From Candidatus Marsarchaeota archaeon (GTDB lineage: Archaea; Micrarchaeota; Micrarchaeia; Micrarchaeales; Micrarchaeaceae): a DNA stretch of 64,000 nucleotides. Position numbers: made by a program. Positions 6,001 through 9,000 of the stretch are shown here, in pieces. The stretch covers positions 1 to 64,000 of the forward strand of contig JAMCYM010000002.1 in assembly GCA_023473665.1 (NCBI GenBank), read 5' to 3'. Within the stretch, counting starts at the first letter, position 1. The number at the start of each line of letters is the position of its first letter.

Positions 6001-9000
6001 AGCTTCTTCTGCGGCCACCACACCTTGCACTGCTTGCCGAAGAAGATGCAGTAGTCGCACTTCCATTTCTCTTCGAAAGGTACAGGCACGGCCTTGCGTT
6101 CCCCAGTCCAGTACTTCATCGCAAAGGCCGTTATATCATTGAATTCCTGCTCTGTATACTGCAGCCTCATGGTTTTCAGCGTCTTTCCGCTGAACTGGTC
6201 TATGTAGTGCAATTGCACCGTGTTGCTCAGCCTGCCCAGCTTCGTGCACTTCTCGAAGAACTCATTGGAGGCATGCCTTATGCTCCTCGCATCTTTGGCC
6301 ACGCCGATTGCATCCAGCTGCCTGGTAAACTCGTCGGTCAGAGAGAGCCTGTCTACTCCATAGCTCCTGCAGAAATTCTCTGAAGTGTAGAGGCCGTCGC
6401 GCAGGTCCTGCAGCATCTTCCTGTAGAGCATGACCTGCACCCTGTGCGGCCTTATCTGGGGTTCGGAGAACTGGCTCCTCTCGGACTTGGTCTTGTCCTC
6501 GCTCACCATTATCCCATCATCATGAACGAGCAGCTCGTCTATCTTGCCTACTAGCTTGTAGCCGTTGACCGAGCCGTAGACCTGCACCTCGCGCGTGCGC
6601 CTGTTCTTGTGCAGGGAATCGAGCGCCATGCTGTTCGTATAGAGCATCTTGTACAGATAATCTGCATAGCTCTTCGGCTCCAAAGGCAGGGGCTCGTTCA
6701 CCTCGTTCTCGAGCTCTTCGTGCATGCTGCGCCCCTTCCGCATCTCGGCCGTGACCTTCTCGCCTACGGTGTAGCCGAGCTCCATCTTGAGCTCGCACCA
6801 GTACTGCGAGGCTATGTCCGTCGCGCGTATGCTCGTCTTGTGCAGTCTCTCAAGCACGTTCATGAAAAGTCAGCCCGCCTACTTATCGTCATAGCTAAAA
6901 GCTCAGCGATTACCTCACTCATCACAATGGTAATTAACGTCATGCGTATAAATAGGTTTTGACGGGAAATTTATCCAGACGGGCAAAGCATAAATATGTG
7001 GATATAGTGAGTAGGTGCTGGTGAGGCCATGTTAGGCTCGAAGGAAAATAAGAACACTGCAACTGATGAGTACTATTCAAAACGGTCGGATGCAGCTAAT
7101 GCGCGCGCAGATAACGCTCGCAATGCAGTCGAAGCGTTAAACGCAGAAAGAAGGCAGCAGCGTCTCCTAAGAAAGGAGGAGAAGAGGGCCGAAAGGGAGG
7201 AGTTTAAGCTTGAAGTGAAAAAGGCAGGATACCACACAAGAATCAGCTATCATATATCTGGGTTTATAGATGGCATTGCGAATGCAACCAAGATCTCAAA
7301 ACCAACGCTAATAGCAACATTTGTTACGGGAGGGGCATTTTTAGGTTCAGTGGCTGCGATATATGCGGGGGCTGCCACAGGAAACGTGACACTGGTGAAT
7401 GCTTCAATAATCTCACTTTTTGTCTCTTTTGGTACGGCAGGGCCCCTATGGGGCCGATTTCTTGGCAGCTTGCCTGTCGCATCCAATTAAATATGAAAGT
7501 AGCTATGTAAAGCTGAGACCAACCTACTTGCTAATGTGTTTCAGCGCGAATTTATACACGATATATAGTGCTATCGCGAATATGCCAACTGCTGTTAGCG
7601 TTATCACTGCGTTGTTGGTTGAGAGCGCCTTCATCCCGAAAATCAGGAGCACGGCATCGTATATCGCCGCGCCTGCAACCGAATACCCGAAGAACCTCTT
7701 CGGCTCCATCCGTGCAAAGCCCGCCGGGAAGCTCATTATCGTCCTTATGACGGGCACGAGCCTTGAGAGGAACACGGCCGCGAGGCCGTTGCGTGCGAAC
7801 CATGCGTCGAAGGCATCCAGCCTTTCCTGCGTCACGTGGAAGAACCTGAGGTGCCTGTAAACTACATCCTTGCCCAGGAAGTAGCCTATGTAATAGTCTA
7901 TCGCTATGCCTGCAAGGCTGCCAAGCAGCGCCGCAATGTATGCAGGCACGAAACGCAACGTGCCGTTCGCCACGAATATCCCAGCGAGCGGGAGTATCAC
8001 CTCGCTCGGCACGGGAATCGAGGAGCTCTCGAGGAGCATCAGCCCGAAGACCGCAAGCAGGCCGTAATGCGACATGAGCGTTTGTATTGTGGCGTAGGCG
8101 TTGCTGAAGAGGGAAGAAATTATGCCTAAGATTATGTAACTAACCATAAGTAACACGTCTGCAATACTTGACTATCAAGGTTTATGAATGTTGGGGCGCA
8201 TCTGAAACGCGCAATCTTTAATGCTAAATATGTTTCCTGAGATGGACTGTTGATGCGCATCATAAAGTTCTACGAGAACGACGGGACGCTTAAGGTCAAG
8301 GTCGACAGGCTGGAAGACCTATGGACCATACAGCGCGTCATATTTCCCGGAGATCTCGTGAAGTCGCAGAGCCTGCGCCGCTTCAAGTCCAGCGAAAGCG
8401 ATGTTGGCGAGCTCAAGGAAGTGGTGGTGCGCCTGCGCACCGAGAAGACCGAGCTGGACAAGAACGCGGAGCGCCTTAGGGTGATGGGCAAGATAGTGGA
8501 GGGCAAGCCCATGGACTACATAAGGCTCAATAGCTACCACACCCTCAACGTGGCGCCCGGTGACACGATAGAGATCACAAAGCCGAGATGGCCCAGTTAC
8601 ATGCTGGAAGTGGTGCGCGACTCTGTATCGGACATGAAAAAGCCGAGGCTCGGCATAATAGTGGCAGATGACGAGAAGGCCCAGCCCGCATATCTGCTCG
8701 GCTACGGCATAGAGTTCAAGAAGGAGATATACAGCGGCCTGAGCAAGAAGATGACGCCCAAGGACTTCGCCGAGCAGGAGAAGAAGTACTTCAAGGCAAT
8801 ATCTGATGCCATAGAAGAGATGAAAGTAGACACGGTGATACTCGCAGGGCCGGGCTTCACCAAGGACGACGTCAAGAAGTACATGGACGAGAATGGCATA
8901 ACAAAAAGGCTCACCAAGCGGCTAATGCTAGAGCAAGCGAGCACCCCGGAGCGTTCCGGCGTCTACGAGCTCATAAAGGGCGAGCGCGTGGCGGAGATAC

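Follow-up and report, generated by a model that had tools for sequence, protein, structure and literature searches.

The genome of Candidatus Marsarchaeota archaeon (assembly GCA_023473665.1) encodes a box C/D small RNA (sRNA) that is best described as a double-guide sRNA of the sR26 type with swapped guides, which in late 30S assembly probably forms a releasable clamp between positions 1530–1539 and 1399–1406 of 16S rRNA and is predicted to methylate C1402 and not C1533 in this organism. At the level of sequence this description is carried by the four boxes, the complementarity of both guides to 16S rRNA, conservation across the phylum, covariation at position 1406, and the presence of fibrillarin and Nop5 genes in the genome. 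The analysed stretch of DNA, referred to as the window, comprises the first 64,000 nucleotides of contig JAMCYM010000002.1.

Guides for the anti-Shine-Dalgarno (anti-SD) tail are already known, and neither the targets nor the design of the RNA is new. The preliminary description of the locus had presented such a guide as a new control point in archaeal ribosome assembly, a claim that is anticipated by the sR13 precedent (PMC5389701) and by sR26, which by our pairing of its printed sequence (PMC4836650) carries the same two guides. What is new, as judged from the sequences, is the lineage (Micrarchaeota), the swapped arrangement of the guides, and the tendency across the phylum for pairing to outlast the predicted methylation.

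The Guide RNA Locus

The presence of an unannotated minus-strand box C/D sRNA with all four boxes, as initially proposed, was confirmed by sequence reading, which places four boxes and two 12-nt guides at 6870–6925. A strict scan for all four boxes over the 779-kb genome returned two matches, against none in the reversed control; apart from this RNA, it detects a single further canonical C/D RNA in the reduced genome. The elements of the locus are as follows.

6947–6952, minus strand: TATA-like hexamer TTTATA, putative promoter, 22–27 nt upstream of box C
6919–6925, minus strand: box C GUGAUGA (DNA GTGATGA); a box of the RTGATGA type is present in 110 of 110 distinct loci parsed
6907–6918, minus strand: D' guide, 12 nt, complement of the 16S 3' tail 1530–1539 with an A:C mismatch at -5 (C1533)
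6903–6906, minus strand: box D' CUGA
6893–6902, minus strand: D'-C' spacer, a GC-closed stem-loop of 10 nt (3 to 149 nt in relatives)
6886–6892, minus strand: box C' AUGACGA
6874–6885, minus strand: D guide, 12 nt, eight contiguous pairs with 16S 1399–1406, -5 base opposite C1402
6870–6873, minus strand: box D CUGA
5991–6863, minus strand: Exo5-family nuclease gene (PF09810, E 2e-43), start 6 nt past box D

In 65 of 110 loci a TATA-like word stands no more than 30 nt upstream, a count made without a shuffled control. No Rfam family reached its gathering threshold at the sRNA locus; membership in the Rfam sR2 family (RF01139) was considered and rejected, its best score being 24.7 bits against a cut-off of 42 and arising mainly from box matches. 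A weak hint of expression comes from the corresponding locus in Ca. Micrarchaeum sp. A_DKE, where contigs of three of four RNA runs, which are blind to transcript ends and strand, start 11–12 nt inside the sRNA and enter the next gene, and bases 152–300 are without RNA-run contig cover.

The Exo5 gene is a conserved downstream neighbour that is likely co-transcribed with the sRNA. In 96 of 115 loci it follows at a distance of no more than 300 nt, with a box D-to-start spacing of 0–114 nt. It was not found at the out-of-order sRNA loci checked, and the linkage is therefore likely positional.

The other RNA of the strict scan (L321, G000:C2:93768-93822) carries a D' guide that pairs 11 contiguous bases with 23S rRNA at a site which we take to be the helix 69 region, and no clear target was found for its D guide. 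RNAs of this type occur in 19 of 121 genomes of the order with a near-constant D' core, the 23S pairing having been read in the present genome.

Pairing of the Guides with 16S rRNA

Since the window carries the 3' part of the 16S gene at positions 1–1166, both guide targets could be read directly (E. coli numbering in parentheses).

1036–1047, plus strand: target 1, linker of helices h28 and h44 and top of h44 (A1398–A1409), with C1402 at 1040
1155–1166, plus strand: target 2, 16S 3' tail GAUCACCUCA, with C1533 at 1159; contains UCACC, complementary to the GGTG(A) Shine-Dalgarno (SD) motif used in this genome

The D guide sets its -5 base opposite C1402 (window 1040), as had been claimed for the fifth base from box D, within an 8-bp duplex with a predicted energy of -16.5 kcal/mol. 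This duplex is shorter than the nine base pairs of the criterion of Dennis et al.; the pair at -5 is of the Watson-Crick type that is expected of a methylation guide, and covariation agrees with it. Positions 1404–1406 of 16S rRNA vary across the order (UGC, UAC, UGU, CGC, and UGG), and guide position -9 follows 16S position 1406 in 29 of 32 genome-matched pairs (C:G 16, U:A 12, G:C 1, and mismatched 3), with the reservation that kindred genomes are not independent.

The D' guide pairs with nine of the ten bases of 1530–1539 and faces C1533 (window 1159) with an A:C mismatch at -5, the predicted energy of this duplex being -11.3 kcal/mol. This mismatch, which the preliminary description had already recorded, was seen again with the nine other pairs kept; the Watson-Crick -5 pair required of a C1533 guide is thus absent in this genome, and methylation of C1533 is unlikely here because the mismatch falls on the target base.

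Taken in this genome alone, the pairings of both guides are not above chance. Shuffled guides achieved eight of nine pairs somewhere in rRNA in 92 of 300 cases for the D' guide and in 70 of 300 for the D guide, and by energy a tRNA site is marginally stronger than the rRNA site for each guide (-11.8 versus -11.6 kcal/mol for the D' guide, -16.8 versus -16.5 kcal/mol for the D guide). The assignment of the targets is supported by conservation and covariation across genomes. For the D' guide the test of covariation does not apply, because the 16S tail GAUCACCU is invariant in 59 of 59 genomes matched, and a changed tail that would compensate the D' mismatch was rejected on the same count. Its aim at the 16S tail, also part of the original claim, gains from conservation across the phylum and from the fact that all variants of the D' guide converge on the complement of GAUCACCUC, the invariant tail. 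The rRNAs and tRNAs of this genome do not contain GAUUACCUC, the exact complement of the guide present here.

Among 571 crude open reading frames GGTG motifs number 108 at a spacer of 3–12 and 15 at a spacer of 20–29; the genome thus uses GGTG as SD motif, and the D' guide therefore covers a working anti-SD.

The decoding-site stem of the 16S gene is unlike the usual archaeal one, with UAC at 1404–1406 opposite GUA at 1495–1497 in compensating pairs (window 1042–1044 and about 1119–1121), and C1407 is followed by AA. The gene also contains a 518-nt insertion at window 208–725 with an in-frame stretch YIAGMFDVSG, in which we presume a resemblance to the LAGLIDADG motif of homing endonucleases.

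Distribution across the Phylum

The recurrence of the two-guide pattern across the order, reported earlier on fewer genomes, holds in the enlarged set, where 59 of 121 genomes carry it and the reversed control none. A pattern fixing the D-guide core only matched 89 of 301 phylum genomes, and a pattern fixing the tail guide only matched at least 149 of 301, with 8 hits in 7 genomes in the reversed control. By hand count among the matches listed, the sRNA is present in at least about 93 of 129 order genomes and the tail guide in at least about 55 of 172 genomes of 13 families outside the order; the D guide for the C1402 region accompanied it in 28 of 28 out-of-order loci fetched. By such patterns homologues are kept across the Micrarchaeota. 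One guide is decayed or replaced in three genomes (G004, G051, and G210). The counts include two unpublished genomes (G070 and G025).

When 185,579 species genomes were scanned, at least 116 loci were returned, and among the 80 matches listed 75 bear the name Micrarchaeota, two are labelled only "archaeon," and three have other labels. One of these three is labelled Methanothrix, and its genome groups with Micrarchaeota, so that distribution outside the phylum rests on published reports and metagenome hits.

Mismatches at the Predicted Methylation Positions

Pairing was scored in 92 loci, 16 of 108 having been dropped for lack of a 16S sequence; the 16S used came from the same genome in 35 rows, from a congener in 37, and from one out-of-order genome in 20. 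Both -5 bases are paired in 64 of the 92 loci. The mismatch at -5 affects the tail only in 18 (16 intact and 2 decayed guides), which with the loci of the next class leaves the C1533 -5 base paired in 73 loci, and C1402 only in nine (eight A:C and one retargeted), where all eight A:C cases were scored against the 16S of another, out-of-order genome; the C1402 region is canonical in 7 of 7 out-of-order 16S sequences read. Mismatch at both sites occurs in one locus, whose D guide has lost its site, and in none with an intact RNA. Across the loci both pairings mostly persist, yet the place of the single mismatches changes. According to Dennis et al. (PMC4644070) a guide that is mismatched at the target base still pairs but no longer directs methylation, and therefore either of the predicted methylations can be lost with both pairings retained.

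Among 110 distinct loci a G at -10, which lengthens the duplex, is present in 48 of 48 loci with A at -5 and in 0 of 62 loci paired at -5. Looser searches brought in breaks at -7 and at -2/-3, and the first 70 loci show four kinds of break in the tail duplex, placed differently in different genera. A quick Exo5 tree built from 57 rows requires 11 changes of break class, and its well-supported branches force two to three changes for the main break classes. The energy of the tail duplex in genome-matched intact guides spans -10.3 to -13.7 kcal/mol, and the energies of the two duplexes are negatively correlated (rho -0.52 over 46 genera, a value confounded by ancestry).

It was also considered whether perfect matches to the tail are always avoided because they would block mature ribosomes, and this is refuted: a perfect 9-bp tail guide is present in 10 of 92 loci, one of them inside the order, and in 12 of 39 metagenome hits. 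Its complete absence from two other sets (0 of 110 and 0 of 70 loci) concerns loci that were both ascertained via the D-guide core GGCGG, and the ten loci with a perfect tail guide have a D guide with a core mismatch or a shifted register. The perfect tail duplexes of sR13 and sR26 also speak against strict avoidance. Loci perfect at both sites number 0 of 92, and this is what chance predicts (about 0.3 if the guides are independent), since only 10 and 3 loci are perfect at a single site.

Comparison with Known Guide RNAs

The closest relative in design is sR26 of Pyrococcus furiosus, which likewise has two 12-nt guides in the same architecture (wild-type sequence from PMC4836650 and PMC7089733). 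Paired by hand against archaeal 16S rows other than that of P. furiosus, guide 1 of sR26 covers 1400–1409 with -5 on C1402 and a U.G wobble at G1405, which the D guide of the Micrarchaeota RNA shares, and guide 2 forms a perfect 10-bp duplex with the tail GAUCACCUCC with -5 on C1533, where the present RNA has A:C at the target base. In sR26 the D' guide serves the C1402 region and the D guide the tail; here the order is reversed, as in the engineered inv-sR26. By its guide targets, the Micrarchaeota RNA is a natural guide-swapped counterpart of sR26 and would be alike in action. The main texts of PMC4836650 and PMC7089733 name no rRNA targets for sR26 (0 hits for "16S rRNA" and "16S"). The Micrarchaeota family suggests that sR26, a much-studied model RNA, may represent a conserved C1402-plus-tail design, and the natural guide variants could be used directly in the existing in vitro sR26 assay.

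In Nanoarchaeum equitans the anti-SD tail and the decoding-site region are likewise connected by one sRNA, sR13. In the study of Seistrup et al. (PMC5389701) Am1408 and the anti-SD mark Am1534 were measured and both assigned to sR13, and an RNA-based checkpoint of 30S maturation was already proposed; the available text of an earlier RNA-seq study (PMC3491384) lists sR13 without a target for the tail guide. The two RNAs differ in register (A1408 and A1534 for sR13, C1402 and C1533 in Micrarchaeota) and in the tail duplex, which is perfect in sR13 and mismatched here. They differ also in genomic setting, because sR13 was proposed to replace a missing RsmA/Dim1 (PMC5389701), while the present genome still has RsmA.

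Other archaeal guides share single features with the Micrarchaeota RNA. Ignicoccus hospitalis sR11, Sulfolobus acidocaldarius sR122, and Methanopyrus kandleri sR114 possess a guide AUGGGCGG for the C1402 region with the same wobble (Dennis et al. supplement), sR11 being proposed for Cm1402 in I. hospitalis, and N. equitans sR20 pairs with the 16S 3' end for Gm1530 (both PMC5389701); unlike the RNA described here, all four have partner guides that aim elsewhere. Target marks at the C1402 and C1533 sites were not seen in the Pyrobaculum supplement, and a shallow search of the freely accessible literature returned no report of such an RNA in Micrarchaeota.

A Proposed Releasable Clamp and Its Alternatives

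The proposed mechanism can be outlined on the basis of bacterial assembly. In the immature 30S subunit of E. coli positions 1532–1534 pair with 921–923 and displace 1393–1396, a pairing which the authors regard as possible in archaea as well (PMC8177701; PMC11182017), and the protein RbfA sequesters 16S positions 1531–1535 and so promotes the switch of helix 28 (PMC8177701). The sRNA covers 1532–1534 together with the stretch just past the strand that is displaced, as would be expected of a clamp on this switch. It would load L7Ae, Nop5, and fibrillarin and bind the 16S precursor at both sites; Cm1402 would then be made in this organism and the tail held without a mark, the sequestered 1532–1534 would aid the transition of helix 28 from the immature to the mature form, and the moving mismatches may tune release. 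The likeness to RbfA lies in the bases covered by the tail guide; RbfA is a protein without methylation activity, and the analogy would be one of function. A chaperone role of double-guide bridging is already in print (PMC7994747).

The pattern of mismatches, in which either predicted methylation can be lost and both pairings are kept, favours such a tuned clamp over a pure methylation guide. A reason for weakening one duplex in non-thermophiles may be found in sR26, for which the slow step is letting go of the tail-type substrate, in a manner dependent on the other site (PMC4836650). The idea that the RNA links late steps of 30S maturation, put forward in the preliminary description together with the two targets, is supported.

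Against the clamp count the chance-level pairings in the single genome, the occurrence of perfect tail duplexes, the failure to find the RNA in all genomes of the order, and the loss or replacement of one guide in three genomes. Protein factors for this maturation step also remain. An RsmA/KsgA-family gene is kept in the genome (E 8e-42), for which reason the sRNA as a stand-in for a lost RsmA was rejected, and a Dim2-like protein scored 107.8 bits, just under the cut-off of 114.2. None of 151 Micrarchaeota genomes, one of which gave a weak hit, has a match to the Nob1 PIN domain (PF17146) above the cut-off, and the domain was found in four of four archaeal controls; PMC8997704 and PMC7897474 contain nothing on Nob1 in Micrarchaeota, and a link between this result and the sRNA is speculation.

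A possible but rather unlikely account is that the RNA simply guides two methylations, Cm1402 and Cm1533, and has no part as a clamp, its mismatches reflecting drift under relaxed selection in non-thermophiles. It agrees with the 64 of 92 loci in which both -5 positions are paired, with the measurement of Cm1533 and Cm1402 in other archaea (PMC5389701), with the existence of perfect tail guides, and with the loss of one guide in some lineages. However, a dead guide should decay, and the rest of the tail guide is kept and even extended by the G at -10 exactly where -5 is mismatched; the position of the break varies between genera, and in the present genome the 23S-directed D' guide of L321, with its near-constant core, pairs without interruption.

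The analysis also allows an extension of the preferred clamp reading, which we hold to be unlikely in this strong form. The clamp, and not the methyl group, would be what is selected, and the sRNA would be a phylum-wide assembly factor that, in the manner of bacterial RbfA, draws the tail out of immature helix 28 and anchors it at the h28/h44 linker; single mismatches moving between the two guides would cap its total grip so that release is possible, and in Micrarchaeota, where no Nob1 PIN domain came over its cut-off, it may help to define the 16S 3' end. For the question of a methyl mark versus a folding chaperone, about a hundred loci would constitute a natural experiment, with either methylation lost and the pairings in place.

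It had further been suggested that the sRNA masks or methylates the anti-SD. From this proposal the tail as target is retained, methylation is unlikely here given the A:C mismatch, and masking of the mature ribosome is unsupported. Regulation of translation initiation by masking the anti-SD tail of the mature 30S subunit would suit the GGTG motifs of this genome, whose complement the guide covers, yet we consider it highly improbable: the partner-guide site 1399–1406 is paired within h44 in the mature subunit, so that binding of both sites fits precursors, and the relatives sR13 and sR26 are modification guides.

A different role for the D' guide, with some other RNA as its target or with an SD-like function for the Exo5 gene that follows, could be argued from the chance-level D' pairing in one genome, the tRNA site of similar energy, and the frequent adjacency of Exo5. 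Such a role is hardly tenable, as the motif stands about 45 nt from the start codon, the distance from box D to the start varies from 0 to 114 nt, the guide is also kept at loci without a neighbouring Exo5 gene, its exact complement is missing from the rRNAs and tRNAs of this genome, and all variants converge on one tail sequence for which sR26 has the same guide.

Divergent Layouts and Metagenomic Relatives

Several out-of-order homologues (L296, L298, L299, L301, L303, L306, L313, and L314) have long, structured D'-C' inserts of 47–149 nt, in which no convincing rRNA complement was found; three inserts from family f9 have CTAAGC, GTGTCAA, and CGGCCAC in common. Another layout is that of L285 (G091:C20:92900-92960), with a perfect tail guide and a D guide shifted to 16S 1406–1413 with -5 on A1409, which converges on N. 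equitans sR13.

For I. hospitalis Cm1533 was measured, and the available text assigns no guide to it (PMC5389701). Seven metagenome contigs (L237, L240, L243, L260, L262, L263, and L265) encode C/D RNAs with perfect tail guides in the C1533 register and other partner guides, and these are, by sequence, candidates for the type of guide that is missing for this mark.
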